Below the pieces are notes generated by a model that did no database searches, was not told the origin of the DNA, and was given only the letters and a program-made list of their open reading frames with translations. Position numbers and translations under genes: made by a program. Below are positions 5,744 through 32,162 of a stretch of 64,000 nucleotides of DNA, one piece after another. Source of the DNA: Gemmatimonadota bacterium (GTDB taxonomy: Bacteria; Gemmatimonadota; Gemmatimonadetes; Palauibacterales; Palauibacteraceae); assembly GCA_039584255.1 (NCBI GenBank), contig JBDGYE010000005.1:1869-65868 (forward strand), read 5' to 3'. The number at the start of each line of letters is the position of its first letter. The first letter of the stretch is position 1.

Positions 5744-5747
5744 GCCC

Positions 5748-10268: not shown

Positions 10269-10310
10269 GGTCCCGACTCCTACTTCTTGGCCTTTCCTCT
10301 GCTTCCGGTC

Positions 10311-11237: not shown

Positions 11238-11269
11238 GCATCTCGATGCTGAGGGAGTCTGTCCCGGGC

Positions 11270-12195: not shown

Positions 12196-12197
12196 GA

Positions 12198-12671: not shown

Positions 12672-12781
12672 GGCCGTGTTCTCCTGGTGCGGGAGTCGTG
12701 CCTCTAACTGAAGGAGTCCCGTTCGGGTCCTGGAGGGTCGCCGGACTCGTCCTGGCTCTCCTCCTCCTCGACCGTGATTTC

Positions 12782-12967: not shown

Positions 12968-14394
12968 CAGTGGCCCGCCGGAGGAGTGATCCGGGCCAGG
13001 TAGGCTGCCAAAAGGACGACCAGGAGCATCACGATCATTTCCAGTCGCACGGAGCGTCGCAGCGAGCCTCCGTGCGGGTCCTCCCCGGACCTGACGGCGG
13101 GCAGCAGGCGGAGGCGGTGGTAGGCACCGAACAGCACCAGGGCCACCAGTCCGATCACCTTGAGCACAACCGCCCAGCCGTACCGGGTCCCGAAGTACTC
13201 GCCGAGGCCGCCCACGAACAGGAAGGACTGAACGATACCGGAGCCGGTAACCAGAAGGACTGCGAGCAGCGCGGCAGCCGAAACGGCCTTGGCTACGTCC
13301 CTATAGCGCCATCGGTCCGAGTCGTCCTCCGCCTCGATCGACGGACCGTCCGGGCAGAGGATCAACAGCGACAATCCGCCGGCCCAGATCGCCGCCGCAC
13401 CTAGGTGAAGGCCGTTCGCGGGAACCGCCACGTACGGAGAGATGCCGGCCGGATGTCCGCTGAGCGCGCCCGCCACCACGGCCAGGAGTGCCAGGAATGC
13501 GGCAGCCCTGCCCCTCGACCCGAGTAGCGAGAGGACAGCGACGACGACCAGAAGAAGCTTGACCAGGCCCACGACGCCGCTGCGCGTGCCCAGGGCCGTT
13601 CCGAGGCCATCGAGCCCTGAGCCAGGCGGGGTCACCTGAGCCGTCCACGTCGCCAGCCCCAGGGCCATCAGGACTGCCGCCCCGGTGCCCAGCACGAGCG
13701 CCGCGCGCCTGAGCCTCGATTCAGCCGCCAGTGCACCGGTTCCGGTGAACCACAGCAGGCCCGCGAAAGCCAGCAGAAGGGCCATCCCCAAGCCGCCGAC
13801 GAGTGTCTCTCCAAGCCCCGGCCTCTCGTCGGCGTCGACGGCGGCCTCCGCGACCGCCTCCGTGCCCGCCTCGACCTCGGCGGCCCCTGCGTCGACCTCC
13901 GCCTCGCTGCCGGCCTGAACGGCTACGGCGTCCACGACAGAGGCCGCCTCCTCCGCGACGTGGAAGGTGATCGTGCCGCTCACCGGGTGACCATCGACCG
14001 ACACCGTCTGCCAGCGCAGGGTGTGTCGACCCGCCGCCAGAAGCGGTGCATCAGCCAGGAGAACGTGTGCACTGTCGTCAGAACTATACGGGGTAAGCTT
14101 GGCCGCTTCCCCACCGGGAACTTCCAGCTCCAGGGAGCTCAGTTGAGCATTCACTTCGCTGCTGAACACGAGCCGGAAGCGCTCTAGAAACGCGCGAACC
14201 GTGTCATCGCTCGCCGGTACGGAGGAAACCAGCCGCGTGTGAATCGTCCACACCGAGGCTTCCGGAGTAGAGGCGCGCGCCACGGAACTGGAGGTTGTCC
14301 CGGCTGCGAGCCCAACGAGGGCCAGGAGCACGGCCGGGGCGATCGAACTCACGAAAGGCGCCCGGATGGGGCGTCGCCTGCCTGCCGTCTTCAT
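12967..14394 (-). CDS. copCD: copper resistance protein CopC-CopD fusion
   Basis: Signal peptide MKTAGRRRPIRAPFVSSIAPAVLLALVGLAAG is followed by a CopC-like periplasmic domain (VWTIHTRLVSSVPASDDTV...VNAQLSSLELEV...HTLRWQTVSVDGHPVSGTITFHV). After a linker comes an 8-TM CopD-like domain. Confidence 0.8.
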   Translation of the reverse strand: MKTAGRRRPIRAPFVSSIAPAVLLALVGLAAGTTSSSVARASTPEASVWTIHTRLVSSVPASDDTVRAFLERFRLVFSSEVNAQLSSLELEVPGGEAAKLTPYSSDDSAHVLLADAPLLAAGRHTLRWQTVSVDGHPVSGTITFHVAEEAASVVDAVAVQAGSEAEVDAGAAEVEAGTEAVAEAAVDADERPGLGETLVGGLGMALLLAFAGLLWFTGTGALAAESRLRRAALVLGTGAAVLMALGLATWTAQVTPPGSGLDGLGTALGTRSGVVGLVKLLLVVVAVLSLLGSRGRAAAFLALLAVVAGALSGHPAGISPYVAVPANGLHLGAAAIWAGGLSLLILCPDGPSIEAEDDSDRWRYRDVAKAVSAAALLAVLLVTGSGIVQSFLFVGGLGEYFGTRYGWAVVLKVIGLVALVLFGAYHRLRLLPAVRSGEDPHGGSLRRSVRLEMIVMLLVVLLAAYLARITPPAGH

Positions 14395-14643
14395 CAGGTT
14401 CCTTCGAGCCATGTACATCGGGAGGGGGAAGGATCCCGGTCGCTGCATCTCAGTCCCGGGGCACGCCGCCGCCGGATACGCCGCGCGGGTATCGTAGCCG
14501 GCCGTGTGGGAACCGGCAATCGAGCCCCGCTGTTCGTGGGAACGACTGGCCCGGGCCGGTTTAGAACAGCGATCGAATCCCTCCCGGGGCACCGAGGCGC
14601 TCCGGCGCGGGGCATCCGACAGCGCGAGCAGGGAGATACGGAC

Positions 14644-16410
14644 GTGATCTCAGCCACGCGGGGCGGACTCAGCCTCTCTCTCGTCGTCACGGCCGGCGTA
14701 CTGGCTGCGGCCTGCAGTGGCAACGAGGGTCCGGCGCCGTCCGATCCGACGACCACGATCCAGGTCCAGTTCTCGCCGGCCAGCATCGACTTCGGAGACA
14801 CGCGGATGGCCACGGTCGAGGTTCGAAACGCGGGGCAGGCGACGGTCGGACCGGTCGAGCTGGTCGCGGGCACCGTCCGCGACGCCGGGGGCGCGGCAAT
14901 CGCCGGATCGCGACTGGCTGTCACGCCGTCCGAGATCCCGACACTCGCCTCCGGGGCGACCCGAGAGGTGGCACTCGAACTCTCGCTCGGCACGGACATC
15001 GGTCCGGGAGAATACACCGTAGGTCTCGAGGCGCGCGTGGGCGGCGAGCTGGCCGCCTCGCTGGGCGCCGGCTTTTCAGTGTCGCCGGGAGGGCCGCCGA
15101 TCGGCTTCCTCAGCATCAGCGGACCGTCCTCCTCCTCCCAGGGCGATGTGTTCGCCATCACGGTCGAGGCCCGGGACGCGGCCGGCCAGCCGGTGGAAGA
15201 CCCCGAGATCGCCTGGTCGGTATCTCCCGTGTCCGCGGGCTTCGTCAGCGCCGACGGTAGGTTCGTGGGCTACACGCCAGTCACGGCGCGCGTGTCAGCC
15301 GAGGCCGGAAGCGTGGCCGACACGATCGAGGTGACCGTCACTCCCCGCAGCGTACCGCAGGGAGTCTTCCAGGTGCGTGCACAGGGTCTGGTGTCGAGTC
15401 GCTTCACCTCGGACCACTGGGAACACGGAAGGGCCGCGTACACAGGCACGTGGAGCTGCCGGGACGGCGGTGCGTGCGGTAACACGCTCTACGTTTGGGA
15501 CGTGATCGACCCCGCATCCCCCGTGCTCTCAGACTCCGTCCGCGTCGATGCTCGCGTGGTGAACGACGTCAAAGTCCGCGACGGTGGAGACCTGGCGATC
15601 ATCACCCACGAGTCGTCGCTGGATGGGCTGAACGGCATCACGCTGCTCGACGTGACGGATCCCCTCCATCCCGTCGAGATCACACGGTTCACGGCACCCG
15701 ACCTCAGCCCCGGCATTCACAACGTCTGGATCGACGGCGACTACGCCTACCTCGTGGTGGACGGAGCCATGACCTCCGCGGGCCTGCGGGTATTGGACAT
15801 ATCCGACCCGGCGAATCCGAGCATCGTGGCCAGCTTCTACGGCGGCTCGAGCTTCCTGCACGACGTCTACGTTCGCGACGGGCTGGCCTTCCTGTCGCAC
15901 TGGTCGGCGGGCCTGATCGTGCTCGACGTCGGGAACGGAATCGCGGGCGGCTCGCCCACGAGCCCGAGAGAGGTGAGCCGGATCGTCATCCCGGGCTACC
16001 GGGTGCACAACACTTGGTACTGGCCGGGGTCGGGATACGCCTTCGTCGGCGACGAGATAGGGGTACCCGGCGCCGTCCAGGTGATCGACCTCACGGATCT
16101 ACGGAATCCGCGGTGGGTCGCCACGTTCACGCTTCCCGCAGCGGCTCCGCACAACTTCTGGGTCGACGAGGCTCGCGAGATCGCCTACTTCGCCTGGTAC
16201 GAGAACGGCGTACAGGCGGTAGACGCCTCCGGCGAGCTACTGGGAGCGCTCGAAGAGCAGGGTCGGCAGATCGCAGGCCTCCAATACGGAACCGGCAACT
16301 TCTGCTTCGGCTCGGGAGGAACATGCACTTGGGCGCCGCAGCTTCACGACGGCCACATCTTCGTCTCGGACCTGAACACCGGGCTGTGGGTGCTCCAGCC
16401 CACGTTCTGA
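14644..16410 (+). CDS. LVIVD-repeat beta-propeller lipoprotein
   Basis: GTG start with RBS AGGGAGA, lipobox LVVTAGVLAAACSG, and repeated LAIITHE/LVVDGA/LIVLDVG/VQVIDL units characteristic of LVIVD repeats. The upstream 135 aa of track ORF 14239..16410 is low-complexity read-through. Confidence 0.6.
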   Translation: MISATRGGLSLSLVVTAGVLAAACSGNEGPAPSDPTTTIQVQFSPASIDFGDTRMATVEVRNAGQATVGPVELVAGTVRDAGGAAIAGSRLAVTPSEIPTLASGATREVALELSLGTDIGPGEYTVGLEARVGGELAASLGAGFSVSPGGPPIGFLSISGPSSSSQGDVFAITVEARDAAGQPVEDPEIAWSVSPVSAGFVSADGRFVGYTPVTARVSAEAGSVADTIEVTVTPRSVPQGVFQVRAQGLVSSRFTSDHWEHGRAAYTGTWSCRDGGACGNTLYVWDVIDPASPVLSDSVRVDARVVNDVKVRDGGDLAIITHESSLDGLNGITLLDVTDPLHPVEITRFTAPDLSPGIHNVWIDGDYAYLVVDGAMTSAGLRVLDISDPANPSIVASFYGGSSFLHDVYVRDGLAFLSHWSAGLIVLDVGNGIAGGSPTSPREVSRIVIPGYRVHNTWYWPGSGYAFVGDEIGVPGAVQVIDLTDLRNPRWVATFTLPAAAPHNFWVDEAREIAYFAWYENGVQAVDASGELLGALEEQGRQIAGLQYGTGNFCFGSGGTCTWAPQLHDGHIFVSDLNTGLWVLQPTF

Positions 16411-18308
16411 TCGACCGACCCGGCGACCGGTGGAGGGCCCGCGGCTCCGGCGGCCCGACGCGCCTGGTCATACTTGCGCTCGCCTTCGGCTCGCTGGCCT
16501 GCGAAGGCTCCTCGGCGCCGCCGCCCGGCGCCGTGCTCTGGCTCTCGGCAGATTCCCTGGGAGCCGAAGCCGGTACGTACGTCGAGGCGTGGCCTGACGC
16601 GTCCGGGTATGGCCATGACGTGGCGGTCGTGCCTTTTCCCCCCGGCATCAGGCCGAGTGGCGATCCGCCGGACAGGCGCCCCCGTCTTACCCCTCCGGAA
16701 GAGGGACTGGCCGGTCATTCCGTGGCCAGGTTCGACGGCGCGGATGATCTGCTGGGCATTGCCGACGCGGACCTGCTCAACGTGGGCGGCCCCTATGGGC
16801 GGCGGACCATATTCCTCGCGTTTCGAACCGGTGTGGATGTGCGGCGCCGGCAGATGCTCTTCGAGACCGGCGGAGACCTGCGCGGGTTCAACGTCTATCT
16901 GGACGAGGGCGTGCTTCGTCTGGGGGTCTACAACCTGTGGAACGACGACCGGGGAAGCACGACCCCGTTCGGACCCCTGACCATCTTCGCTCCGATTCGG
17001 CCCGGCACGGGCTACCTGGTCACCCTGGAGCTGGACCAGCCGCGCGGCTTGCTGCGGGGCTGGCTGAACGAACGGCCCATCGGCTCGGTGGCCGGTGCGG
17101 GCCGCGTATTCGTCCACCATGAGGACATCGGCATCGGCGCCATCAACGAAGACACCTACTACCACGACGGAGTCCGGCAAGGGGTGCCCACCGGCGATTT
17201 CTTCGCCGGGGATGTAGCCGAGATCCTCGTCTATAACGACGTCCTGACCGACCGTGCGCGAAGAGCTACGGAACGGTACCTGGGCGGAAAGTACGGCCTC
17301 GGGCGACAGTCGAGTCCGGCCGCCCCGGATTCCGGCTCCCGCCTGTACGCCGCCTCGGGCATTACCGACGAGATCCTGAGGCTGGATCCCGCCGACGGCT
17401 CGCGCACGGGCACCGTCGACGTGGACCGGCGCCGGGGAGAGGTGGACGAGCCGCATGGAGTGGCAGTCGGCCCCGAGGGGCTTCACTGGTACGCCACCCT
17501 CTCCCACGGCGAGCCGACGCTCTGGAAGTTCGAGCTGGCCGGCGACCGCCTCGTCGGCCGCGTCCGGCTCCCGACCGCGGGCGCGGCGCGAATCGGCATC
17601 ACGCCGGACGGGAAGCGGGCATTCATCCCCGACTATGACCGCAGCAGGCCCGGACACCCTGGCAAGGTCGCCGTAGTAGGACTCGCGGATCTCTCCATCG
17701 AGGCTACGCTTAGCCCGTGCGCCGGTCCGCATCACGCGGCGCCCGATCCGACCGGCCGGCTCGTCGCCGTGGCCTGCAGCCTCAGCGATGAGGTCGTGAT
17801 CCTCGACGCGCGGACGCTGGAGGAGGTGCGCCGGTTCCCTGTTGACGAGAGCCCGGGCCCTCCCGGCGCCCCAGGCTTCAAGCCGCTGAACCTCGCCTGG
17901 TCCACGGACGGCGCGACGCTGTACGTGGCGATGCACCTCACGGATGCGATCCGGGCCTTCGACCGCGACGGCAACGTCGTGGGCACCGTCACCGTCGGCG
18001 ACGGACCGGCCCAGATCGCCGTCAGTCCCGACGGGCGGACCCTGGTGTCGGCGAACAGGCGCGACGGCAGCCTGTCCGTGGTCGCGGTTCCGGATCTGAT
18101 CGAGCAAAAGAGGGTCGCGCTGGACACGGCGCGCCCCCACGGCGTGGCACTGGATACGGCCGGCGCCACGGCCTTCGTCACCTGTGAGGGGACGCCGGAG
18201 AGCCGAGCGCGTGTGGTCGCCGTCGATCTGGAAGCCGGTCGAGTAAAGTGGACGGCGGACGGGGGCGGATACGCGCTCGGAATCGCCTACGCTGCCGGCC
18301 CCCGGTAG
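16386..18308 (+). CDS. secreted LamG (concanavalin-A-like) domain + YVTN-family beta-propeller repeat protein
   Basis: Start tentatively at in-frame GTG 16386, overlapping the previous gene by 25 nt. Lipoprotein-like signal ...RLVILALAFGSLAC. The LamG-like region ends ...FAGDVAEILVYNDVLTDRARRATERYLGGKYGL. The C-terminus has YVTN-type repeats (RLYAASGITDEILRLDPADG, HGVAVGPEG, RIGITPDGKRAF, VAVACSLSDEVVILDARTLE, AQIAVSPDGRTLVSANRRDGSLSVV). Confidence 0.6.
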   Translation: MGAPAHVLIDRPGDRWRARGSGGPTRLVILALAFGSLACEGSSAPPPGAVLWLSADSLGAEAGTYVEAWPDASGYGHDVAVVPFPPGIRPSGDPPDRRPRLTPPEEGLAGHSVARFDGADDLLGIADADLLNVGGPYGRRTIFLAFRTGVDVRRRQMLFETGGDLRGFNVYLDEGVLRLGVYNLWNDDRGSTTPFGPLTIFAPIRPGTGYLVTLELDQPRGLLRGWLNERPIGSVAGAGRVFVHHEDIGIGAINEDTYYHDGVRQGVPTGDFFAGDVAEILVYNDVLTDRARRATERYLGGKYGLGRQSSPAAPDSGSRLYAASGITDEILRLDPADGSRTGTVDVDRRRGEVDEPHGVAVGPEGLHWYATLSHGEPTLWKFELAGDRLVGRVRLPTAGAARIGITPDGKRAFIPDYDRSRPGHPGKVAVVGLADLSIEATLSPCAGPHHAAPDPTGRLVAVACSLSDEVVILDARTLEEVRRFPVDESPGPPGAPGFKPLNLAWSTDGATLYVAMHLTDAIRAFDRDGNVVGTVTVGDGPAQIAVSPDGRTLVSANRRDGSLSVVAVPDLIEQKRVALDTARPHGVALDTAGATAFVTCEGTPESRARVVAVDLEAGRVKWTADGGGYALGIAYAAGPR

Positions 18309-19518: not shown

Positions 19519-19636
19519 GTCGAACGACAGAAACACGGCCGCCTTTCGGAGTGTATGGAAGGGGCCGCTAGAGATGACGGAAGATGATGGACGGACGATC
19601 GACCAGCCTCGAGCGCCCGATCCGAGGGAGGATGGA

Positions 19637-22600
19637 ATGACACGTGGGCCTATCCGTTACCGGTCACTCCTCGTTGCCGGCGCCCTGCTCCTGGCAGGGG
19701 CCGCGCTTCCCGCGACCGCGGAGGCTCAGTACTTCGGGCGCAACAAGGTCCAGTACGAGAGTTTCGATTTCGAGGTCCTCAAGACCGAGCACTTCGACAT
19801 CTACTACTACGACGAAGGGGAGGAGGTCATCCGGGAGGCGGCCCGCATGGCGGAGCGCTGGTACGCACGCATCGCGCGCCTTCTCGACCATCAGCTGAGG
19901 GGCCAGCAGCCGCTGATCCTGTATGTCAGCCATCCTCACTTCGAGCAGACGAACGCGATCTTCGGAGAGATCGGCGAGTCGACGGGCGGCGTCACGGAGG
20001 TGCTGAAGCGGAGGATCGTGCTCCCGCTCGCCGGCCCGCTGAAGGAGTCCGATCACGTCCTGGGCCACGAGCTGGTCCACGCCTTCCAGTTCGACATCAC
20101 CGCCTTCTCGGGCGACGGAGGAGTCGGCTTCCGGGGGCCGACGGCGCTCCTGCTTCCGCTGTGGTTCATCGAGGGGATGGCCGAGTACCTGTCCGTGGGA
20201 CCCTTGGACGCCCACACCGCCATGTGGATGCGCGACGCCGCCAGCGGGTGCTGCGAGCTGCCCACACTCATGGACCTGACGCAGAACCCTTACAGGTACT
20301 TTCCGTACCGCTGGGGACAGGCCTTCTGGGCTTTCGTGGCGGGCAACTGGGGAGATGAAGCGATCGGCAAGATCCTCAAGGTCGCGGGGCGCAACGGAAA
20401 CACCATCGGTGCCATCGAGGCGGTGCTCCAGGTGCCGGTCGATTCGCTGACGGCGGAGTGGCACCGGGCGATCATCGATATGTACGCTGAGGTGGCGGAG
20501 GACGATGAGGGAGCCCTGGCGGGGCTAGAGGCCAGGCAACCGGACGCCGAGGTGCCGGAAGGCGAGGAGGGCGACCGGCCGGAACCGCTCGACGACGAAG
20601 AGATGCTGGCAGTCTTCGCCGCTCAGCACGGCGGGGCCACCCCGCTGGTCTCGAAGCGCACCGGGGCCGGAGGTCTGAACGTCGGTCCGGCCCTCAGCCC
20701 GGACGGAAGCCGGGTCGTCTTCCTGTCGGAGAAGGACCTGTTCTCGATCGAGATGTTCCTGGCCGACGCACAGACCGGGGAAGTCATCCGGCGCCTGACC
20801 AAGGCCGCTTCGGACCCGCATTTCGAGAGCCTCCAGTTCATCAACTCATCGGGCGCCTGGAGCTACGACAGCCGCCACTTCGCCTACGCTTTTGTCACCG
20901 CCGGACGGCCGGCGATAATCATCATCGAGGCGGAGACCGGGAAGAAGGTGAGGGAACTCCGCTTCGAGACGCTGGGCGAGATCTTCACCCCGACCTTCTC
21001 GCCGGACGGGCGGTCGCTAGCCTTCTCGGCCATCGTGAACGGCTACACGGACCTGTTCGTCGTGGACATCGAGACCGAGGAGCTACGGCGCCTGACCAGC
21101 GACATGTTCGCCGACCTGCAGCCAGCCTGGTCCCCGGACGGGGCGGCGATCGCCTTCGTCACCGATCGCTTCTCGAGCGACCTCGGCACGCTCGAGTACG
21201 GCAACTACCGGCTGGCGATCATTGACCCGGCCACGTCCGAGATTCAAGCCCTGCCGGTGTTCGGCGTCGGAAAGCACATCGACCCTCAGTGGTCGGCCGA
21301 CGGCCAGAGCATCTACTTCGTGACCGACGTGAGCGGGATCTCGAACGTCTACCGGTTCGAGTTCCAGGGAGGCAACCTGTACCAGGTCACCGACCTGAAC
21401 ACGGGCGTGAGCGGCATCACCGCGTTGAGCCCCGCCATCTCCGCCGCGGCCGCGTCGGACAAGCTGGTGTACACCGCGTTCGAGGGCGGCGACTACAACC
21501 TCTACGCCATCGATGATCCGGCCCGGCTGGAAGGTGAACCCATCGAGGCGGCCATCGCCGGGGTGAGCCCGGCGATGCTGCCGCCGCAGGACAGGTCCGC
21601 GGGGCTGGTGAGTGTGCTCATGGACGAGCCGGAGCTGGGTCTCGCGGACACCCTCACGTTCACCGCCGACAACTACCGGCCGGGCCTGGCCCTGGATTAC
21701 GTGAGCCAACCCCAGCTTGCGGCTGGTGCCGACCGGTACGGGGCCTTCCTCGCGGGCGGGATATCGCTCTTCTTCAGCGACATGCTGGGGAACCGCAACC
21801 TGGGCACCGTGGTGAACATCAACACCGCCGCCGGCGACATCCTCAGGAGCTCGTCGCTGGTCGTGAGCTATCAGAACCGGCGGACGCGCTGGAACTGGGG
21901 CATCGAGGCCGGACAGGTTCCGTTTGTCACGAGCCAATTCCGGCTATTGGACCTCGGCAACGGCTTATTCCAACAGGAAGAGCTCAGGCAGTGGCAGATC
22001 AACCGCCTGGTCACGACGGGAGTCTCCTATCCGTTCAGCAGGGCGTCACGCGTGGAGTTCGGCGCCGGGTTCCAGGGGATCGACTTCGCGAACGAGATCC
22101 GGCGCACCGTCTTCGATAGCTTTGGCGTCCAGGTCAGCGAAACGGAGAAGGAAGAGTTGCCGTCCCCGGAGACGCTTCTCATGGGGATCTTCACGGCGGC
22201 GCTGGTCTACGACAACACGCTGTTCGGAGGGACCGGGCCGATCCTGGGGCAGCGCTACCGGCTCGAGATCTCGCCCAGGGTCGGGGACCTGAACTACTAC
22301 ACGCCCTTGGTGGACTACCGCCGTTACTTCATGCCGGTGAGACCCACGACGTTAGCGTTCCGACTCCTCGGATTCGGCCGCTTTGGTCAGGACGCGGAGG
22401 ACATCCGGCTGTCCTCATTGTACCTCGGGTACCCATCGCTGATGCGGGGATACAATGACGGATCGTACTCCTTCGACGAGTGCGAGGGCGGCGTCACGGA
22501 TCAGGGACTGACCTCGTGCCCCGCCTTCGACCAGTTGTTCGGGAGCCGGATCGCCGTCGCCAACTTCGAGTACCGGATCCCGCTGCTCGGCTTCTTCGGT

Positions 22601-22864
22601 TTGATCCCGTCCGCAGGAGCTCCGCCGGTTGAGACGGCGCTGTTCTTCGACGCCGGAGTTGCCTGGAATAGAGCCCTCGATCCCACTTTCTCCTGCGCCA
22701 GCGACCTCACCGCCGGTGTCGACTGCCGGGAGGTGGTTACGAGCCACGGGATCGCCATGCGCGTGAACCTGCTGGGGCTGCTGCTCATGGAGCTGGACTT
22801 CGTGCACCCCAACAACCGGCCGAGGGGCTGGTACTGGCAGTTCAGCCTGGTCCCGTCGTTCTGA
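19637..22864 (+). CDS. large secreted protein: peptidase-MA-like (HExxH) domain + TolB-like PD40 beta-propeller repeats + C-terminal outer-membrane beta-barrel
   Basis: RBS GGGAGGATGG. The signal peptide ends AEAQ. HELVHAF zinc-metalloprotease motif is present. PD40-type repeats are seen (SPDGSRVVFLSEKD, SPDGRSLAFSA, SPDGAAIAFVTDR, SADGQSIYFVTD). The last ~400 aa have alternating β-strand patterns ending ...WYWQFSLVPSF with a terminal Phe typical of OM barrels. Confidence 0.55.
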   Translation: MTRGPIRYRSLLVAGALLLAGAALPATAEAQYFGRNKVQYESFDFEVLKTEHFDIYYYDEGEEVIREAARMAERWYARIARLLDHQLRGQQPLILYVSHPHFEQTNAIFGEIGESTGGVTEVLKRRIVLPLAGPLKESDHVLGHELVHAFQFDITAFSGDGGVGFRGPTALLLPLWFIEGMAEYLSVGPLDAHTAMWMRDAASGCCELPTLMDLTQNPYRYFPYRWGQAFWAFVAGNWGDEAIGKILKVAGRNGNTIGAIEAVLQVPVDSLTAEWHRAIIDMYAEVAEDDEGALAGLEARQPDAEVPEGEEGDRPEPLDDEEMLAVFAAQHGGATPLVSKRTGAGGLNVGPALSPDGSRVVFLSEKDLFSIEMFLADAQTGEVIRRLTKAASDPHFESLQFINSSGAWSYDSRHFAYAFVTAGRPAIIIIEAETGKKVRELRFETLGEIFTPTFSPDGRSLAFSAIVNGYTDLFVVDIETEELRRLTSDMFADLQPAWSPDGAAIAFVTDRFSSDLGTLEYGNYRLAIIDPATSEIQALPVFGVGKHIDPQWSADGQSIYFVTDVSGISNVYRFEFQGGNLYQVTDLNTGVSGITALSPAISAAAASDKLVYTAFEGGDYNLYAIDDPARLEGEPIEAAIAGVSPAMLPPQDRSAGLVSVLMDEPELGLADTLTFTADNYRPGLALDYVSQPQLAAGADRYGAFLAGGISLFFSDMLGNRNLGTVVNINTAAGDILRSSSLVVSYQNRRTRWNWGIEAGQVPFVTSQFRLLDLGNGLFQQEELRQWQINRLVTTGVSYPFSRASRVEFGAGFQGIDFANEIRRTVFDSFGVQVSETEKEELPSPETLLMGIFTAALVYDNTLFGGTGPILGQRYRLEISPRVGDLNYYTPLVDYRRYFMPVRPTTLAFRLLGFGRFGQDAEDIRLSSLYLGYPSLMRGYNDGSYSFDECEGGVTDQGLTSCPAFDQLFGSRIAVANFEYRIPLLGFFGLIPSAGAPPVETALFFDAGVAWNRALDPTFSCASDLTAGVDCREVVTSHGIAMRVNLLGLLLMELDFVHPNNRPRGWYWQFSLVPSF

Positions 22865-22923
22865 TCGACTGCGACGGGCCACGCCGGTAGGCATTTGCGT
22901 GGCTCTTCTCCTCCGGAGGGTGT

Positions 22924-23271
22924 TTGAAGCTTGTCCTGAAATGGCTAATCAACGCCGCCGCTCTCTACGTGGCGGAGCGCCTGGTCCCCGGGATCCAGGT
23001 CGACGATACCGGTTCTCTTCTTCTGGCGGCGGCGGTAATCGGCTTGGTGAACGCGGGTCTCAAGCCGCTGGCAGTCGTGCTTACGCTCCCCGTCACGGTC
23101 CTGACCCTCGGGTTGTTTTATCTTGTGGTTAACGGAGCGATGCTCTATCTGGCGGCCGCGCTGACTCCCGGCTTCGAACTGAGCGGATTCGGCGCCGCCG
23201 TTCTGGGGGCGCTGGTGATGTCGATCGTCGCCATGCTTCTGAGCGGAATCGTAGATGCCGAAGCGGATTGA
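22924..23271 (+). CDS. phage holin family protein (DUF360/holin superfamily IV-like 4-TM membrane protein)
   Basis: TTG start with GGAGGG RBS 4 nt upstream. MKLVLKWLINAAALYVAERLVPGIQVD...GLVNAGLKPL... matches the DUF360 pattern; it is 115 aa. Confidence 0.55.
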   Translation: MKLVLKWLINAAALYVAERLVPGIQVDDTGSLLLAAAVIGLVNAGLKPLAVVLTLPVTVLTLGLFYLVVNGAMLYLAAALTPGFELSGFGAAVLGALVMSIVAMLLSGIVDAEAD

Positions 23272-23295
23272 CACGCCAACCTGAGCCCCGTCCTC

Positions 23296-24486
23296 GTGAC
23301 GGGTCCATGCGGCTTTCGGGCGAAAGGAGCCGTGGCCATCGTGGATTACTTCGGACGAGATCACCTCAGAGAACTGTTCGAAATCGAAGACGGATACGCC
23401 GTCTCCATCTACATGCCCACCCACCGACGCGGCGCCGACGTGGCGGCCCAGTCGCTGCGGCTCAGGGCGGCGCTGAAGGAGGCACGAGACCTCATCGGCG
23501 CGGACGGTGCGGCCGACGGAAGACGGGTGCTGGAAGCGTTCGAGCCATTGGTGGCGGATAACGAGTTCTGGCGCCACCAGGCGGACGGGCTGGCGCTGTT
23601 CGCCTGCAGGGGGTTCGAGAGGCTGTACAGGCTCCCGGTCCAGGTGCCCGAGCTCGTGGTGGTCGGGCCCACGTTCCATACCAAGCCACTCATCGAGTTC
23701 CTCCAGGCCCCGGATCGCTTTTGGGTCCTGGCGCTCACGCAGAAAGAAGTGCGCCTGTGGGAGGGATCGACGACTGGGCTCGCACCCGTGAACCTGGCCA
23801 CGGTCCCCACCAGCCTCCAGGAAGTCCTCGGGACGCCGATCGAAAAGGACCAGCTGTCGGTACGAAGCCCTCGGGGGCCGAACAGCACCGCCTACTTCCA
23901 CGGTCACGGGGCCGGAAAGGACGACAGCAAGCAGGAGCTCGAAAAGTACTTCCGGCATGTCGACTATGGGGTGAACGCGCTGCTGGAGGATGAGATAGGA
24001 CCGATCGTCCTGGCGGCCGTCGACTACTACCACCCCATCTACCAGGGCATCAGCAAGCTGGAAAACCTGGCCGCCGATGGGATCGTCGGGAACGTCACCG
24101 ACTGGGACGAGGCGCGCATACACGCGTCTGCATGGCCCATCGCGAGGAAAGTGGTGGACCGGAAGATCGACAAAGCCCTGAACCTGTGGGAGACCTCGTA
24201 CGGGCGAGGCAAGGTCGAGTCGGACGTCTCGGCGGCAGGCCGCCTGGCCGTCGCGGGCCGGGTCCGGCTGCTGCTGGCGGAGAAGAGCAGGCGAGTCTGG
24301 GGTCGTCTGGACCGAGTCACTGGGGCCGTGGAGGTCATCCGCGAGAACGGCAAGGACCCGGGGAACGAGATCGTCGACCTGCTGGACGAGCTGGCGGAGA
24401 TCACGATCAAGTACGGGGGACGGGCTCTAGTGCTTCCCCCGGAGAGGATGCCGACGGGGACGGGGCTGGCGGCGGTGCTTCGGTAG
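23296..24486 (+). CDS. bacterial eRF1/Pelota-like (baeRF family) protein
   Basis: The 396-aa protein has N-terminal ...VSIYMPTHRRG... and a central ...FHTKPLIEFLQAPDRFWVLALTQKEVRLWEG... The C-terminal domain ends ...GRALVLPPERMPTGTGLAAVLR, resembling eRF1/Pelota domain 3 (archaeal Pelota ends ...GGIAAILRF). No GGQ motif is seen. A GTG start at 23296 or 23341 is possible. Confidence 0.45.
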   Translation: MTGPCGFRAKGAVAIVDYFGRDHLRELFEIEDGYAVSIYMPTHRRGADVAAQSLRLRAALKEARDLIGADGAADGRRVLEAFEPLVADNEFWRHQADGLALFACRGFERLYRLPVQVPELVVVGPTFHTKPLIEFLQAPDRFWVLALTQKEVRLWEGSTTGLAPVNLATVPTSLQEVLGTPIEKDQLSVRSPRGPNSTAYFHGHGAGKDDSKQELEKYFRHVDYGVNALLEDEIGPIVLAAVDYYHPIYQGISKLENLAADGIVGNVTDWDEARIHASAWPIARKVVDRKIDKALNLWETSYGRGKVESDVSAAGRLAVAGRVRLLLAEKSRRVWGRLDRVTGAVEVIRENGKDPGNEIVDLLDELAEITIKYGGRALVLPPERMPTGTGLAAVLR

Positions 24487-24628: not shown

Positions 24629-25954
24629 TCAGTTCGCCGTGATGACCTCCGTGTCGATTTCCTCGGGGTCGCCGATGACCCCGAAGCGGTAGCCACCCAC
24701 GTAGTTGTTCGCTACGCGACGGACATCCTCGGGAGTCACGGAGCGGAGCTTCCCCTGGAAGTCGAGGGAGTTCTCCCAGCCGCCTCCGACGACCTCGTAG
24801 GTGGCCAGCATGCTGGCCTGCCCCATGTTCGTCTCCTGCCCCATCCAGTATCCAGTGAGGTAGGGATTGATGAACTCACCCACTGCCTCCGGCGTCATGG
24901 TCTCGTTCTGGAGGCGGTCCACCTCGTGGAACATCACCTTGATCGTCGTGTCGGGATCGACCGCGGTGACGTAGAGGAGCCCGTAGTTCGCCTCGCGCTG
25001 CGACATGCCTGCCCCAACCGCGTAGCTCAGGCTCCGCTTCGTGCGCACCTCCTCCCACAACCGTCGCGACAGCGTCGTGATCGCGGCCTGCATCGCCGGA
25101 TAGTCCGGGTCGTCGAGGCTGGGAGCCGGGAACTGGCCCCGGATGTAGTTAGTAGGGATCTCCCGGTCGACGATCTCCAGCTCCTCCGCTCCCGGCGCGG
25201 AGGGCGGAGCCGTTTGGGCCGTTCCCCCCGTTGCGGGAAGCGAGCCGAAGGCGTCGGCGATCTTCGACTCCAGGTCGGCGCGGTCGACGTTTCCGACGAC
25301 CACGAACACGAGGTTCTCCTTCGTCAGCCGCTCGCTGTGCCAGCCGACCAGGTCGTCGCGCGTCAGCGCCTCGATGCTCTCCACGGTCCCCCGCGGATCC
25401 AGCTCGTAGGGGTGACCGGCGTAGAAGAGGTTGTTCGCCAGAACCTCCAGGTAGTCGTCCGGGTCGTCGACGCGCTGCCGAAGCCCGTCCAGGATCTGCC
25501 CCCGTGCCAGCTCGACCTCCTCCTCGGGGAAGGTCGGCCGGAGGATCGCCTCCGTGAACAGCCCCCACGAGACGTCCCAGTGATCACGGACCGCCTGCAG
25601 TGTGGCCACGGAGTAGTCATGGAGCGCCTGCCCGCCGATCTGCGTTCCCGTGGCCTGTGCGCGCGCCGCGAACTCGTCCTTCGCGTAGTTCTCGGTCCCT
25701 CGTGTGAGTAGCATTCCGATGAAGGACTCGATTCCCTGGGTCTCCGGAGTCAGGTTGGCGCTGCCGCCCCGGAGTACGGCCCGGATCGCGATGACGTCGT
25801 TCGCCTCGATCGGCTTGTAGATCACGGGGATGCCCGCCACCTCGAATTCCACGACGCCGGCGTCGCCGGTCGGTTCCTCGGCCGGCGTGCAGCCCGCCAT
25901 CGAGCAGGCGACGAGGGCGGTGCCGGCGAGCAGGAAGTTCTTCGAGCGCCTCAT
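24629..25954 (-). CDS. M16 family peptidase-like lipoprotein (non-catalytic partner subunit; no HxxEH)
   Basis: Lipobox LVACSMAGC. The M16 fold pattern ...NYAKDEFAARAQATG...FYAGHPYELDPRGT... is present but the inverzincin HxxEH is absent. It overlaps the upstream M16 gene by ATGA. Confidence 0.75.
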   Translation of the reverse strand: MRRSKNFLLAGTALVACSMAGCTPAEEPTGDAGVVEFEVAGIPVIYKPIEANDVIAIRAVLRGGSANLTPETQGIESFIGMLLTRGTENYAKDEFAARAQATGTQIGGQALHDYSVATLQAVRDHWDVSWGLFTEAILRPTFPEEEVELARGQILDGLRQRVDDPDDYLEVLANNLFYAGHPYELDPRGTVESIEALTRDDLVGWHSERLTKENLVFVVVGNVDRADLESKIADAFGSLPATGGTAQTAPPSAPGAEELEIVDREIPTNYIRGQFPAPSLDDPDYPAMQAAITTLSRRLWEEVRTKRSLSYAVGAGMSQREANYGLLYVTAVDPDTTIKVMFHEVDRLQNETMTPEAVGEFINPYLTGYWMGQETNMGQASMLATYEVVGGGWENSLDFQGKLRSVTPEDVRRVANNYVGGYRFGVIGDPEEIDTEVITAN

Positions 25955-27321
25955 GAGATCACCTCCTCGGCCAGCAGCGCCTCAGTCGTCAGCCCGGTCT
26001 CGGCTCGGGCCTCCGGGCTGATCAGCACGCCGGACACGTACGGCTTGTCCTTCAGGTACGTGCCGACGAAGCGGGCGATGTCGTCCCGCGTCACCTGCTG
26101 GATGTTGTCTATGTAGTCCTTGTAATAGTCGATTCCGGCCACGGCCCACCAGAAACCGACGGTATGAGCGATCTGGCTGCTGCTCTCGCGGCTGTATGTC
26201 TCGTTGATCGCCATCTGGGCCTTCGCCGAGGACATGTCCTCATCGCTGAAGTAGTCGGGGTCGTCCAGACGCGCGATCTCCTCGTGGATGGCCCGGTGCA
26301 GGCCAACGACGTTCTCCGGCGTGGTCTGGGCGAACACCGAGATCGGCCCGACGTGGGAAAGGGTGTAATAGCTGAAGTTGACACCGACTCCGAGCCCGCT
26401 GTCGACCAGCGCCTTCTGAAACGGGCTGCCCTGTCGGTTCAGCATGTAGATCATGAGGTCGGCGGCATAGGTGGCCCCGGGATCCTCGTCCACGCTCGGG
26501 CCGTGCCACTGGACCATGGCGGCCGTTGCCTGGACCGGCAGCTCCACGATCACCGCGTCCGCCCTCTCGAGCGCCGGCGGGTCACCCACGGGCTCGGCGA
26601 ACGGGTCGGGGCCGCGGGCCCAGTCGCCGAACACCTGCTCGGCCAGCCGGAAGCCCTCCTCCGGGGTGATGTCGCCGGAGAGAATGAGCGCCGAGTTGTT
26701 CGGCACGTAGTACCTCTCCTGGACGGCGAACATCTTCTCCTGGGTCGCGGTGCTGATGATCTCGCGATCTCCGATGACGTTCTTCCGCGAGAAATACTCG
26801 GGCGACCACGTCTTCTCGCCGACCGCCTGGAACAGGTGAAAGAACGGGCTCGCCTCGTTGCGGTCGTACTCACCGAGGACGACCGGCCGTTCCCGCTCCA
26901 GCTCGTCCTGGAGGAAGAGCGGGTACCGGATCGCGTCCTCCATGAACTCCAGGCCCGCCCGCAGGCTGTCCACGCCCAGCGTGAAGTAGTAATTCACCCG
27001 CTCCTCGCTCGTGGTCCCGTTGAACACGGCTCCGAGCTGGCGGACGCGCGCCATATACGATTCCTGGTCTGGAATCGTGCGGTTCGCCTTGAAGAACATG
27101 TGCTCGTAGAGGTGAGAAAGTCCGTCGTACTCCGGGCTCTCGGTGTAGGCGCCGTTCCGCACGTCCATCTCGACGGTCACGAGGGGGACCGAGTGGTTCT
27201 CGATCACGATCACCTCGAGTCCGTTGTCGAGTACGGTGGTCGCGATGTCCTGAGCCGCCAGCGGCGCGGCCAGGTACGCGACTGCGAGACAGACGCCTCC
27301 GGCTAGTGTCCAGAAGCGCAT
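25951..27321 (-). CDS. M16 family zinc peptidase (pitrilysin/insulinase-like), catalytic subunit
   Basis: Signal peptide MRFWTLAGGVCLAVAYLAAPLAAQD. The inverted zinc motif HLYEHMFFK (HxxEH) is present, with ...E...NAYT downstream. Confidence 0.85.
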   Translation of the reverse strand: MRFWTLAGGVCLAVAYLAAPLAAQDIATTVLDNGLEVIVIENHSVPLVTVEMDVRNGAYTESPEYDGLSHLYEHMFFKANRTIPDQESYMARVRQLGAVFNGTTSEERVNYYFTLGVDSLRAGLEFMEDAIRYPLFLQDELERERPVVLGEYDRNEASPFFHLFQAVGEKTWSPEYFSRKNVIGDREIISTATQEKMFAVQERYYVPNNSALILSGDITPEEGFRLAEQVFGDWARGPDPFAEPVGDPPALERADAVIVELPVQATAAMVQWHGPSVDEDPGATYAADLMIYMLNRQGSPFQKALVDSGLGVGVNFSYYTLSHVGPISVFAQTTPENVVGLHRAIHEEIARLDDPDYFSDEDMSSAKAQMAINETYSRESSSQIAHTVGFWWAVAGIDYYKDYIDNIQQVTRDDIARFVGTYLKDKPYVSGVLISPEARAETGLTTEALLAEEVIS

Positions 27322-30219: not shown

Positions 30220-31656
30220 TCAGCCTTTGACCACTCCGATCGGCCGCAGCTTTACGACGGGCCGCCCGATGCCTGCGGAGGCCACCACACGCACCACGTC
30301 CTCGACGTCCTTGTAGGCCTCGGGGACCTCCTCGGCGACGGTCCGGTCCTTGGCGGAGCGGATCTCGATACCCCGCCGGTGGAACTCTTGCTTGATGTTC
30401 CTGCCGTGCATGCTCTTTCGCGCCTTCGTGCGGCTCATCCTTCGGCCGGCGCCATGGCAGCTCGAGCCCAGCGCCTCGTCGAATCCGGCCTCCGTGGCGA
30501 CGGCGACGAACGAGTACCGGCCCATGTCGCCGGGGACGAGGACCGGCTGGCCCGTAGCGCGGTAGCGTGGCGGAAGCTCTTCGTGGCCGGCGGGAAAGGC
30601 GCGCGTGGCCCCCTTGCGGTGCACGCAGACTTCCCGCCGCTCGCCCTCGAACGTGTGCTCCTCGAACTTCGCGATGTTGTGGCATACGTCGTAGACGGTG
30701 CGCATTCCTGCTGCCACGGACTCGCCGAACACCCTCCCGAAAACCTCGCGCGCCCGCGCGGTAAGCATCTGCCGGTTCCCAAAGGCGAAGTTGGCGGCGG
30801 CGTTCATTCCCCCCAGGTACCACTGCCCTTCGGGTGAGGGAATGGGAGCACAGCAGAGCTGCCGGTCCGGGAGTTTGATCCCGTACTTGGCCGCCGCGTC
30901 GAGCATCGTCTCGAGCGAGTCGTCGCACACCTGGTACCCCAGTCCGCGAGAGCCGCAGTGAATCATGAACGCCACGGATCCGGGCTCCAGGCCGAAGGCC
31001 GACGCTGTATCGGGGTCGTGCACCTCCTCCACGACCTGAATCTCGGCGAAGTGGTTGCCGGAGCCGAGGGTGCCGAGCTGGTCGCGGCCGCGCTTCCGGG
31101 CACGCTCCGAAAGGGCTTCGGGATCTGCGCCGGGGAGGCGGCCACGGCTCTCGATCGCCTCCAGGTCGTCCTCGTTGCCCAGTCCCCGCGCGACGACCCA
31201 ACCCGCTCCCTCGGCGAGGACTCCTCTGAGGTCGGCGGGCTTGAGAACGAAGTCGGTCCGCCGCGACCCGACCCCGCTCGGAAGATCGCGGAACAGGCGG
31301 TCCATGAGCGTGTCCAGCCTCGACCGGACCTCAGCCTCGGTCAGGTCGGATCGGAGCAGCCTCACGCCGCAGTTGATGTCGTAGCCGACACCGCCGGGCG
31401 AGATGACGCCGTCCTCGACGTCGAAGGCGGCCACACCCCCGATCGGAAAACCGTATCCCCAGTGAATGTCGGGCATGGCGAGGGATTTCCCGACGATACC
31501 CGGAAGGCAGGCCACGTTCGCCACCTGCTCCAGGGCCTTGTCGTGGCGCAGGGTCTCCATAAGCCGGTCGTCGGCGAACACGAGGCCGTCCGTCAGCATG
31601 TCGCCGGAGCGGGGAATGAGCCACCGGGAGTCGTCGAGCCTCTCGAGAGTTACCAT
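30220..31656 (-). CDS. rtcB: RtcB family RNA ligase
   Basis: MVTLERLDDSRWLIPRSGDM...LPGIVGKSLAMPDIHWGYGFPIGG...GYDINCGVRL...GSGNHFAEIQVV...HCGSRGLG...SSCHGAGR carries all the RtcB metal/GTP site motifs. The true start is 31656; the track N-terminal 100 aa is read-through. Confidence 0.9.
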   Translation of the reverse strand: MVTLERLDDSRWLIPRSGDMLTDGLVFADDRLMETLRHDKALEQVANVACLPGIVGKSLAMPDIHWGYGFPIGGVAAFDVEDGVISPGGVGYDINCGVRLLRSDLTEAEVRSRLDTLMDRLFRDLPSGVGSRRTDFVLKPADLRGVLAEGAGWVVARGLGNEDDLEAIESRGRLPGADPEALSERARKRGRDQLGTLGSGNHFAEIQVVEEVHDPDTASAFGLEPGSVAFMIHCGSRGLGYQVCDDSLETMLDAAAKYGIKLPDRQLCCAPIPSPEGQWYLGGMNAAANFAFGNRQMLTARAREVFGRVFGESVAAGMRTVYDVCHNIAKFEEHTFEGERREVCVHRKGATRAFPAGHEELPPRYRATGQPVLVPGDMGRYSFVAVATEAGFDEALGSSCHGAGRRMSRTKARKSMHGRNIKQEFHRRGIEIRSAKDRTVAEEVPEAYKDVEDVVRVVASAGIGRPVVKLRPIGVVKG

Positions 31657-31718: not shown

Positions 31719-32162
31719 TCAGACGTCGAATAATACCCGGGCGCACCACATGTCGCCGCGCCGCTCCACGCGGAGCCCGTGATAGGTGACCGCCTTTACC
31801 TCGCGGGTCGGTCCCTCTCCGGAGGTCCAGCGTACGCGCGCCGTGAGGCCGAAGCGTCCGCCTTGCGCCGAGGGAACGTGGGTCCCGACGGACAGGCCTT
31901 CGAAGAAGGGCGTTGCCCGCTCCACCTGTGCGGTCACGAGCAGCTCGCGCAGCCACGCCACCAGCAGCCGCTCGAGGTCGGGGCGCTCGAGCACGATCTC
32001 CTCGGCCTCACCTGAGCCTCGCGCCTCAGCGTCAAGTAGCCCCAGGGCCTGGGTCAGCCCGAGTCCCGCCAGCTCGAAGAGCTCATCGAGCGAGTGGGCC
32101 TCGATCTCGAAGCCGACGTCGGCGTCGTGCTCGAACTCACGCAGAGTGGATCGCCTGCTCAC
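31719..32162 (-). CDS. archease (RtcB activator)
   Basis: MSRRSTLREFEHDADVGFEIEAHSLDELFELAG...REVKAVTYHGLRVERRGDMWCARVLFDV is the archease fold signature. It sits directly upstream of rtcB. Confidence 0.8.
   Translation of the reverse strand: MSRRSTLREFEHDADVGFEIEAHSLDELFELAGLGLTQALGLLDAEARGSGEAEEIVLERPDLERLLVAWLRELLVTAQVERATPFFEGLSVGTHVPSAQGGRFGLTARVRWTSGEGPTREVKAVTYHGLRVERRGDMWCARVLFDV

Follow-up and report, generated by a model that had tools for sequence, protein, structure and literature searches.

A 64,000-nucleotide stretch of genomic DNA from a Gemmatimonadota bacterium (contig JBDGYE010000005.1, assembly GCA_039584255.1; hereafter the window) encodes, directly adjacent and on the same strand, a small membrane protein of a family named after phage holins and a protein resembling the eRF1/Pelota family of translation factors. 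This arrangement raises the question of what the release factor-like protein does and whether its membrane neighbour takes part in it.

Gene models and spacer

Both open reading frames were confirmed on the + strand. The upstream gene (positions 22924–23271, +) starts with TTG, encodes 115 amino acids including an acidic C-terminus, and is preceded by a Shine-Dalgarno-like GGAGGG (22915–22920, +) that is separated from the start codon by 3 nt (GTG), as read from the sequence. The longest reading frame of the downstream gene begins with the GTG at position 23296 (23296–24486, 396 aa), which is the protein length given in the original prediction together with a spacer of 25 bp. However, nearly all homologues comprise 380–384 aa and start with MDYFGR, and an AAGGAG motif (23324–23329) is located 11 nt upstream of a second GTG at position 23341. 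As both features favour the latter start, the gene likely spans positions 23341–24486 (+) and encodes 381 aa, leaving a spacer of 69 nt (23272–23340, +) that carries the AAGGAG motif. The reading frame and the C-terminus quoted in the original prediction were thus correct, while the length of the protein and of the spacer had to be revised.

A terminator scan identified no terminator-like site in this spacer, and a promoter scan, which is uninformative for this phylum, identified no sigma-70-like promoter around the gene pair. No matches were obtained when the entire window was scanned for Rfam families and tRNAs. A hairpin or RNA thermometer sequestering the Shine-Dalgarno sequence was considered and rejected: the alignment fold reached -4 kcal/mol with an unfavourable covariation term, and the spacer of the window was not more stably folded than its shuffled versions (z = -1.07). 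Spacers of the ~70–84-nt class contain a C/U-rich stretch ahead of the Shine-Dalgarno sequence.

The downstream gene encodes a Balon-family protein

The downstream gene encodes a three-domain aeRF1-like protein of the Balon family, the closest relatives of which are Balon of P. urativorans and the mycobacterial proteins Msmeg1130 and Rv2629. Comparison with eRF1 and baeRF profiles, as proposed in the original prediction, yielded matches to Pfam baeRF families 3, 7 and 6 at about 1e-33 (PF18845/PF18849), which cover residues 141–322 of the 396-aa reading frame; baeRF_family3 is likewise the top Pfam family of bona fide Balon. When searched against the PDB with phmmer, the protein matched solely Balon (8RD8_B/8RDV/8RDW; E 2.5e-11), and did so over its full length (residues 24–395 vs 5–367). 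A profile built from the family matched Balon with an E-value of 1.3e-50 and Msmeg1130 with 3e-11. The alignment with P. urativorans Balon (AOC03_06830; 8RD8/8RDV/8RDW) and with Msmeg1130 and Rv2629 (8V9J/K/L) is collinear and full length and the three-domain fold is the same, at sequence identities of about 21% to Psychrobacter Balon and 15–17% to the mycobacterial Balons.

The structural comparison agrees with this assignment. A Foldseek search with the AF2 model of the protein (pLDDT 88, pTM 0.80) ranked Balon first (E 5e-25, TM 0.61–0.65), followed by Msmeg1130 (TM 0.65–0.68), while Rv2629 reached a TM of 0.59–0.61. The Balons (TM 0.59–0.68) outscored aRF1/eRF1 (about 0.4; aRF1 about 0.42) and Pelota/Dom34, which have the same three-domain architecture and match significantly (E 1e-15 to 1e-5), but with a TM of only about 0.2–0.45. 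Furthermore, a motif search of the protein found neither GGQ nor NIKS. Profile, fold and motif searches hence all bear out the predicted eRF1/Pelota-like (baeRF) protein without GGQ. Contrastingly, the accompanying description of this protein group as lacking experimental characterisation is out of date, since the nearest solved structures are those of ribosome-bound Balon hibernation factors (PMC10901736).

The NCBIfam model NF052287 ('AOC03_06830 family ribosome hibernation factor') matched the protein over its full length with 145 bits, short of the 330 bits set as the curated cutoff. Balon reaches 507 bits with this model, and cyanobacterial and proteobacterial homologues reach 156–176 bits; the model is narrow, and the window protein is therefore placed outside its equivalog group but inside the wider Balon family. 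Balon proteins have been operationally defined as bacterial proteins of at least 300 aa that can be retrieved from P. urativorans Balon by iterative HMMER searches (PMC10901736), a definition that includes the window protein with its 381 aa and its direct phmmer match to Balon. The gene thus adds an unexceptional member to a known family and is located in a probable facultative stress bicistron. Gemmatimonadota genes of this kind that are annotated as "hypothetical protein" or "baeRF" can consequently be named Balon-family hibernation factors, which extends Balon to a poorly studied and mostly uncultivated phylum.

Domains and conserved motifs

The N-terminal domain comprises approximately residues 1–125 (23341–23715, +), its limits being approximate and taken from AF2 secondary structure and Balon alignments. 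In Balon, this domain binds the decoding centre (PMC10901736). It contains a conserved P-T-H-R segment at residues 26–29, downstream of which the His-Pro of Psychrobacter Balon ('THREHP') aligns with Gly-Ala in the window protein ('THRRGA') in loops of equal length; the comparison presumes that the published N-domain motif, which is given without residue numbers in the text of PMC10901736, is this His-Pro. Proline occupies the respective column in 13 of 48 family members, and the ribosome-binding Msmeg1130 has no His-Pro there either.

The middle domain (approximately residues 126–290; 23716–24210, +), as delimited by the AF2 model, is the part of the protein to which the Pfam baeRF models align. 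At the position of the aeRF1 GGQ motif it contains the loop FHGHGAGKDD (23896–23925, +), which has no glutamine and corresponds to GGSDRS in Psychrobacter Balon. Across phyla, the loop follows the pattern [FY]-H-G-[H/Q]-G, with G188 present in 45/48 sequences and position 189 occupied by histidine in 29/48 and by glutamine in 8/48; its pLDDT is low in both predicted models. The published Balon mechanism gives no account of this strongly conserved loop, and the HGHG stretch offers the Balon field a concrete target for mutagenesis.

Such cross-phylum conservation would be in line with an active ribosome-rescue or peptidyl-tRNA-release factor in which the H-G-[H/Q]-G loop replaces GGQ. Some baeRF families retain a possibly catalytic glutamine according to Burroughs and Aravind (PMC6514570), and the RtcB and archease genes located nearby (see below) would fit a damage-rescue pathway. 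However, the window protein contains neither GGQ nor a glutamine in the loop, its nearest structural matches are non-catalytic Balons, and the equivalent loop is kept out of the catalytic centre in the structures of Balon-ribosome complexes, in which the nascent peptide remains intact (PMC10901736). We therefore regard active release as very unlikely and retain the assignment as a Balon-type hibernation factor.

The C-terminal Pelota-like domain comprises approximately residues 291–381 (24211–24483, +). According to the AF2 model, it has a Balon-type beta-hairpin at residues ~319–335, the strands of which (residues 319–323 and 330–335) are predicted with pLDDT >90 in a stretch that aligns to Balon without gaps. 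This hairpin replaces the aeRF1-type zinc ribbon, as described for baeRF proteins (PMC6514570), and its counterpart in Balon is an insertion that contacts EF-Tu-GDP (PMC10901736). The domain ends in a conserved GLAAVLR tail, which is common to the window protein, Balon (..VTRY) and Msmeg1130 (..AAVLRW).

The upstream gene encodes a DUF360/YvlD-family membrane protein

The 115-aa upstream protein is a small inner-membrane protein of the DUF360/YvlD family (PF04020, 'Phage_holin_4_2'). It matches all 105 positions of the PF04020 profile (1–105) with an E-value of 1.9e-35 and 122 bits (cutoff 28.8), its hydropathy is compatible with three to four transmembrane segments, and 4,741 homologues were retrieved at E ≤1e-5. 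Together with the GGAGGG motif, these features confirm the predicted membrane protein of the DUF360/holin superfamily IV with a ribosome binding site. DUF360/YvlD/LiaZ proteins are members of envelope-stress regulons (PMC12791056, PMC7033496), and their genes are found in Psp/Lia-type operons in Firmicutes. YvlD of B. subtilis (yvlABCD, sigma-W regulon), LiaZ of E. faecalis (liaXYZ) and Lmo2484 share with the window protein the full-length PF04020 domain and a small multi-transmembrane architecture. They are encoded in Psp-like envelope-stress operons, whereas the partner of DUF360 in the window is a ribosome factor, and Pfam searches of the neighbourhood identified no genes for PspC or toastrack (YvlB/YvlC) proteins near it.

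The original prediction read the pair as an abortive-infection-type or stress module. In an abortive-infection or conflict system, the aeRF1-like protein would sense or attack ribosomes and the holin-like protein would permeabilise the membrane, leading to cell death; the Pfam family name 'phage holin', the tight adjacency of the two genes on the same strand and the conflict-related roles proposed for baeRF proteins by Burroughs and Aravind (PMC6514570) are in line with this scenario. Searches for defence and phage genes argue against it: PADLOC-DB v2 contains no match to the DUF360 protein, the Balon-family protein or the product of the gene upstream of them, the sole PHROG match is marginal (E 0.0014), none of its aligned stretches passing the threshold by itself, and no relatives were found on IMG/VR contigs or in a phage genome collection. 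The surroundings are those of an ordinary chromosome, as the window contains genes for respiration and housekeeping but no endolysin, prophage or defence-island genes, and the locus shows conserved synteny and vertical inheritance rather than mobility. Furthermore, either partner persists alone, whereas a sensor and its effector would be expected to occur together, the DUF360 protein has an acidic C-terminus, and the characterised relatives of the two proteins act in hibernation (Balon) and envelope stress (DUF360). An abortive-infection function is thus extremely improbable, while the generic reading as a stress module is plausible. The DUF360 protein is not a lysis holin here, and it is misleading to annotate this chromosomal gene as "phage holin family protein".

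Linkage of the DUF360 and Balon genes across genomes

A genome scan with a narrow alignment (A1) yielded 79 loci, a sample that is biased toward carriers of the motifs FW[RNT][HY]QA[DE]GL or [FY]HGHG. Of the 41 assessable Gemmatimonadota loci, 31 have DUF360 directly upstream of the Balon gene and in the same orientation, while outside this phylum the pair is found in one of 36 loci (Scytonema, L073). Elsewhere, DUF360 is largely unlinked to the baeRF gene, a situation that the original prediction had named as counting against a functional module, the linkage being confined to one Gemmatimonadota clade and one cyanobacterium. A DUF360-type neighbour is reported neither in the Balon paper (PMC10901736) nor in the baeRF paper (PMC6514570), and neither holins nor DUF360 nor Gemmatimonadota appear in the text supplements of the former; the pair documented here thus adds a lineage-specific neighbour to those described for the family.

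Within Gemmatimonadota, the two genes are part of a phylum-wide block with the order SPOR/DPBB – Tricorn/Omp85 – DUF360 – Balon – NifU – ProDH – PRTase. In the window, the conserved upstream neighbour is a Tricorn/PD40/Omp85-like gene (19574–22864, +; 1096 aa), as identified by Pfam and the synteny table. Such a Tricorn/Omp85 gene is found upstream in about 34/41 loci and adjoins the Balon gene directly in lineages without DUF360 (L004, L010, L011). Unrelated flanking genes are as often conserved as DUF360, and the in-phylum linkage of DUF360 and Balon does not exceed general synteny. The Balon gene was kept through at least six or seven losses of DUF360, including one in the nearest sampled relative of the window (L004), and DUF360 orthologues without a Balon gene occupy the same syntenic slot in three further loci (L084–L086). 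Since loss of one gene does not entail loss of the other, the partnership is facultative, and DUF360, though often found next to the Balon gene, is a dispensable and lineage-specific neighbour. Loci with both genes, Balon alone and DUF360 alone in one and the same slot constitute a natural experiment on the relation of DUF360/YvlD to translation shutdown.

Equal conservation of the flanking genes, repeated loss of DUF360, its occurrence without Balon, the scarcity of the pair outside the phylum and the lack of published reports would all be consistent with two functionally unlinked genes, in which case DUF360 acts independently and its adjacency to the Balon gene, the assignment of which would be unaffected, reflects vertical inheritance only. 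Several features of the junction speak for a closer association. The pair remains intact despite changes in the upstream flank (L003, L030, L037, L039, L043, and loci with Macro-gene insertions), and with spacers of 11–216 nt none of the 31 linked loci is interrupted by another gene, whereas both flanking junctions do take insertions. Spacers are as short as 11–25 nt in nine linked loci, and the pair in Scytonema (L073) is of independent origin. In addition, two MAGs each contain two diverged copies of the pair, which is suggestive of paired duplication but could also be produced by binning of mixed populations. On balance, we consider the absence of any functional link possible, albeit rather unlikely.

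Stress-gene context and proposed function

The Balon gene of the window has a stress-response neighbourhood, which serves as supportive context and not as a strict criterion for family membership. Genes for an RtcB RNA ligase (30220–31656, -; PF01139, E 3.7e-170), beginning 5.7 kb downstream, and for archease of the RtcB cofactor family (31719–32162, -; PF01951, E 1.1e-25) are located 5.7–7.7 kb downstream of the Balon gene on the opposite strand. The RtcB of the window is 86% identical to the L004 copy (tblastn). RtcB and archease recur near the Balon gene in the clade, RtcB in nine other loci. RtcB is also a neighbour in the Rv2629–Rv2631 region. A diverged copy of the Balon gene lies inside a Usp-RtcB-archease/CBS cluster, and outside Gemmatimonadota, genes related to stress and membranes (MscS, Usp, CBS, PRC-barrel) are overrepresented next to the homologues. 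Balon genes have been described in stress-response neighbourhoods that include RaiA/HPF, RtcB, Hsp20, Usp and similar proteins, with RtcB as a recurrent neighbour (PMC10901736). In contrast to these, the window gene has DUF360 upstream and no adjacent RaiA/HPF; Pfam searches found no HPF/RaiA gene within about 9 kb of it.

Balon, Msmeg1130 and Rv2629 bind the ribosomal A site (PMC10901736), and Balon of Synechocystis was detected on hibernating ribosomes in their native state (10.64898/2026.07.03.736309). Binding to the A site independently of mRNA, with translation inhibited, is established for the Psychrobacter, mycobacterial and Synechocystis homologues. As in these complexes, the window protein, a three-domain aeRF1-like factor that has lost the motifs for stop-codon reading (NIKS) and peptide release (GGQ), would bind the A site under starvation or stress. 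Occupancy of the A site would be independent of mRNA and would silence and protect the ribosomes, possibly with involvement of EF-Tu-GDP. The DUF360 and Balon genes were passed on together in this Gemmatimonadota lineage and probably form a bicistron that is transcribed as one unit and induced by stress. Overall, we consider it likely that the locus encodes a Balon-family hibernation factor with a YvlD/DUF360 neighbour in a probable facultative stress bicistron.

Beyond this, a further but unlikely reading makes DUF360/YvlD a genuine partner in Balon function within this lineage, either linking stress of the envelope or of membrane energetics to hibernation or tethering hibernating ribosomes to the membrane, in parallel to E. 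coli YqjD with its 'holin-like' neighbour YqjE. By a second, likewise unlikely reading, the [FY]-H-G-[H/Q]-G loop may confer on this Balon subfamily an activity at the peptidyl-transferase centre beyond that described by the Psychrobacter structures.

The yqjD-yqjE-yqjK genes of E. coli resemble this arrangement. The proteins are unrelated on both sides (DUF883 vs aeRF1-like, and PF07332 vs PF04020), and YqjD carries its own membrane anchor, whereas nothing suggests one in the window Balon. The likeness is one of organization: in both cases, the gene for a hibernation factor lies beside a conserved neighbouring gene for a small membrane protein labelled as 'holin' (YqjE, Phage_holin_3_6).

Identity of the larger protein

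The window has a GC content of ~65%, making it high-GC DNA, and its close homologues come from Gemmatimonadota MAGs. Both same-strand open reading frames (ORFs) of the original prediction, a holin-like membrane protein followed by a bacterial eRF1-like (baeRF) protein, were recovered at their predicted place. The first gene (22924..23271, + strand) has a TTG start with GGAGGG in front and encodes a 115-aa product covering the entire PF04020 profile (Phage_holin_4_2, formerly DUF360; Pfam, E 1.9e-35), with hydropathy consistent with 3-4 transmembrane segments and an acidic C-terminus. The longest ORF of the second gene (23296..24486, + strand) comprises the 396 aa originally listed. Because nearly all of 120 close homologues are 380-384 aa long with an MDYFGR N-terminus, and because the GTG at 23341 has AAGGAG 11 nt ahead, the gene most likely spans 23341..24486 and encodes 381 aa, which would place it 69 nt rather than 25 bp behind the DUF360 gene. 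The C-terminus quoted for this protein and its lack of GGQ were both correct.

This second gene encodes a member of the Balon family of ribosome hibernation factors. Pfam baeRF families 3, 7 and 6 match its product at ~1e-33, in agreement with the initial baeRF assignment, and baeRF_family3 is also the top Pfam family for Balon itself. The single full-length NCBIfam match was NF052287 ('AOC03_06830 family ribosome hibernation factor'; 145 bits, below the equivalog cutoff of 330). AOC03_06830 is Balon of Psychrobacter urativorans, a hibernation factor of the aeRF1 superfamily described in 2024 (PMC10901736), and the family is thus not experimentally uncharacterised as had been stated. The NF052287 model is narrow, as it scores Balon at 507 bits versus 156-176 bits for cyanobacterial and proteobacterial homologues, similar to the window protein. 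Among all PDB sequences, phmmer matched only Balon (8RD8/8RDV/8RDW; end-to-end alignment, E 2.5e-11). A family profile built from 48 diverse members matched Balon over residues 2-369 (E 1.3e-50), including a C-terminal tail common to the family and Balon, and also Msmeg1130 (E 3e-11). An AlphaFold2 model from the 48-sequence alignment reached pLDDT 88 and pTM 0.80 (pLDDT 68 with an earlier, shallower alignment). Foldseek searches of the PDB ranked three Psychrobacter Balon models on top (E 5e-25 to 1e-23, TM 0.61-0.65), followed by Msmeg1130 (TM 0.65-0.68); Rv2629 also matched well (TM 0.59-0.61). The structural comparison with Pelota/Dom34 proposed originally did yield matches, but these and aRF1/eRF1 (TM ~0.4) ranked lower, and a separate Foldseek run gave the same order. 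The locus therefore represents a further member of an already known family, which comprises 9,198 representatives (50% clustering) at E<=1e-3.

Comparison with characterised Balon proteins

Like Balon, the window protein is modelled with a three-domain fold and lacks both GGQ and NIKS. The model also contains, with high confidence, the C-domain beta-hairpin of Balon, and the alignment to Balon is gapless there. The 'HP motif' may be missing if it corresponds to the His-Pro of THREHP in Psychrobacter Balon, where the window protein reads THRRGA at equal loop length; the ribosome binder Msmeg1130 also lacks His-Pro at this position. Ribosome binding has been demonstrated for the Psychrobacter and mycobacterial proteins (PMC10901736), and Synechocystis Balon has been seen on native hibernating ribosomes (10.64898/2026.07.03.736309); for the window protein, ribosome binding is predicted.

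At the GGQ position, the family has a strongly conserved [FY]-H-G-[H/Q]-G loop, which follows the pattern [FY]-H-G-[H/Q]-G-x-G-x-[DE]-[DE] across phyla and reads FHGHGAGKDD in the window (23896-23925, + strand; aa 186-195 of the 381-aa protein). Within the 48 sequences, G188 is conserved in 45, and position 189 is H in 29 and Q in 8. Psychrobacter Balon carries a different sequence in this loop, and according to the baeRF paper this loop shows poor conservation within families 1, 2 and 6 (PMC6514570). The published Balon mechanism gives no account of this conserved loop.

The DUF360 protein

With 4,741 matches at E<=1e-5 in the set of scored candidates, PF04020 is a very large family. Its members have been characterised in Firmicutes envelope-stress operons, including the Psp-like yvlABCD of the sigma-W regulon in B. 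subtilis, lmo2484-2487 of Listeria and liaXYZ of E. faecalis (PMC12791056, PMC7033496). 'Holin' is a label of this family and is not evidence of lysis. The suggested abortive-infection-type module found no support: neither protein matched PADLOC defence models, PHROG gave one marginal match, and no relatives were found in IMG/VR contigs or phage genomes. The remaining window genes, which encode cytochromes, Fe-S/NrfD complexes, fumarase, peptidases, FUR and the like, also speak against a role in lysis or defence.

Conservation of the gene pair

Neighbours given in the Balon and baeRF papers include HPF/RaiA, RtcB, Hsp20 and HdeD, and neither paper mentions a DUF360-type neighbour (PMC10901736, PMC6514570). 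Scanning one genome per GTDB species yielded 79 loci, in which all six-frame ORFs were searched with HMMs for both families and negatives were rechecked by tblastn. Of the 41 Gemmatimonadota-type loci that could be assessed, 31 have a same-strand DUF360 gene immediately upstream, and the pair is present in 3/3 metagenomic contigs whose orthologues are 100, 66 and 56% identical, one of these contigs differing in its upstream flank. However, DUF360 is missing in L028, L036, L041, L042, L044 and L045 as well as in L004, L005, L010 and L011, where a Tricorn/Omp85-like gene abuts a Balon gene whose product is 70-77% identical. The losses are scattered over the Balon protein tree, at a minimum of 6-7 distinct positions; one of them is L004, the closest relative of the window in the sample. 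Conversely, L084-L086 retain DUF360 orthologues in the same slot (Tricorn/Omp85 -> DUF360 <- NifU <- ProDH) without a Balon gene. This slot thus occurs in three states in related Gemmatimonadota: both genes, Balon only (L004, L010 and L011, ~5800-6001) and DUF360 only (L084, L085 and L086, each ~4001-4354); in L084/L085 an ATP-grasp gene occupies the would-be Balon position. As a control, the block SPOR/DPBB - Tricorn/Omp85 - [DUF360] - Balon - NifU - ProDH - PRTase is syntenic across the clade, and since its unrelated neighbours are as often conserved as DUF360, co-occurrence within the phylum says little on its own.

Outside Gemmatimonadota, the pair was found at one of 36 loci, a Pfam-confirmed case in Scytonema sp. 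RU_4_4 (L073 5580-7152; PF04020 -> Balon, 34-nt gap). This cyanobacterial pair is independent, and is missing in its closest sampled cyanobacterial relatives. Of 124 ORFs flanking the non-Gemmatimonadota loci, fewer than two belonged to PF04020. The DUF360 gene is hence a lineage-specific, dispensable neighbour of the Balon gene, and genuine functional coupling of the two proteins appears unlikely.

The neighbours of homologues outside the phylum vary, but many are stress- or membrane-related (MscS x6, rhomboid x4, Usp x3, CBS x3, also PRC-barrel/DUF2382 and MgtC), in keeping with a role in stress or hibernation; MscS-channel domains are the commonest family among all flanking ORFs. In the heterocystous cyanobacteria L050, L052, L054, L066 and L080 (~7155-8520), a ~452-aa gene begins 3-5 nt past the Balon stop codon, a gap that suggests translational coupling.

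Transcriptional and stress context

The two genes are probably co-transcribed in Gemmatimonadota, as their junction is never interrupted (spacers 11-216 nt, nine at <=25 nt) whereas both outer junctions repeatedly take insertions, the pair stays intact where its upstream flank has changed, two diverged copies of it occur in each of two MAGs, and a terminator scan found no terminator-like site in the window's spacer. Testing led to the rejection of a conserved RNA structure in the spacer that would sequester the SD.

Insertions include two M16 peptidase genes downstream in the window and a Macro-domain gene upstream elsewhere. The tandem M16 (insulinase-type) genes (24629-27321, - strand) separate Balon from NifU and look like a local insertion, since NifU follows Balon within 13-100 nt in most related loci. 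The divergent Macro-domain gene (PF01661 in L003) occurs in one sub-clade just upstream of the pair, inserted between the pair and the Tricorn/Omp85 gene (L003 4696-5229; L031 4850-5389; L032 3879-4415; L034 336-1007); in L031 and L034 it occurs together with the pair. The Balon copies within each MAG share ~70% nucleotide identity (L031+L034 in CAYVFM01, L032+L033 in CAZEUW01), and three of the four have a visible DUF360 gene of their own. They could be paralogues or reflect mixed-population bins; L033 adjoins an ORF resembling, by eye, an IS3-type transposase.

The gene context fits a role in stress or hibernation, and the pair may be stress-induced. RtcB (PF01139, E 3.7e-170) and archease are encoded 5.7-7.7 kb downstream of Balon on the other strand, and RtcB is a reported neighbour of Balon genes (PMC10901736). 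Furthermore, a 48%-identical Balon copy resides in a compact cluster (L044 2684-7179, L045 3-3575) in which Balon shares its strand with a CBS-domain protein gene, while Usp, RtcB and archease are encoded on the opposite strand; this cluster lacks DUF360. In a parallel case, E. coli yqjD encodes a membrane-anchored hibernation factor with conserved small membrane-protein neighbours (10.1101/2024.08.16.608256). As in the window, a 'holin'-labelled gene lies beside it (yqjD-yqjE-yqjK of E. coli K-12, L087 3376-4377), but YqjE belongs to PF07332 ('Phage_holin_3_6', E 3.5e-21), which is unrelated to PF04020.

No tRNA genes or Rfam matches were found in the whole 64 kb window. Its many genes for multihaem cytochromes c (Cytochrome_C7/c3, paired CXXCH), NrfD and 4Fe-4S dicluster proteins (e.g. 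1-18000 and 35000-64000) suggest respiratory or metal-reducing complexes.
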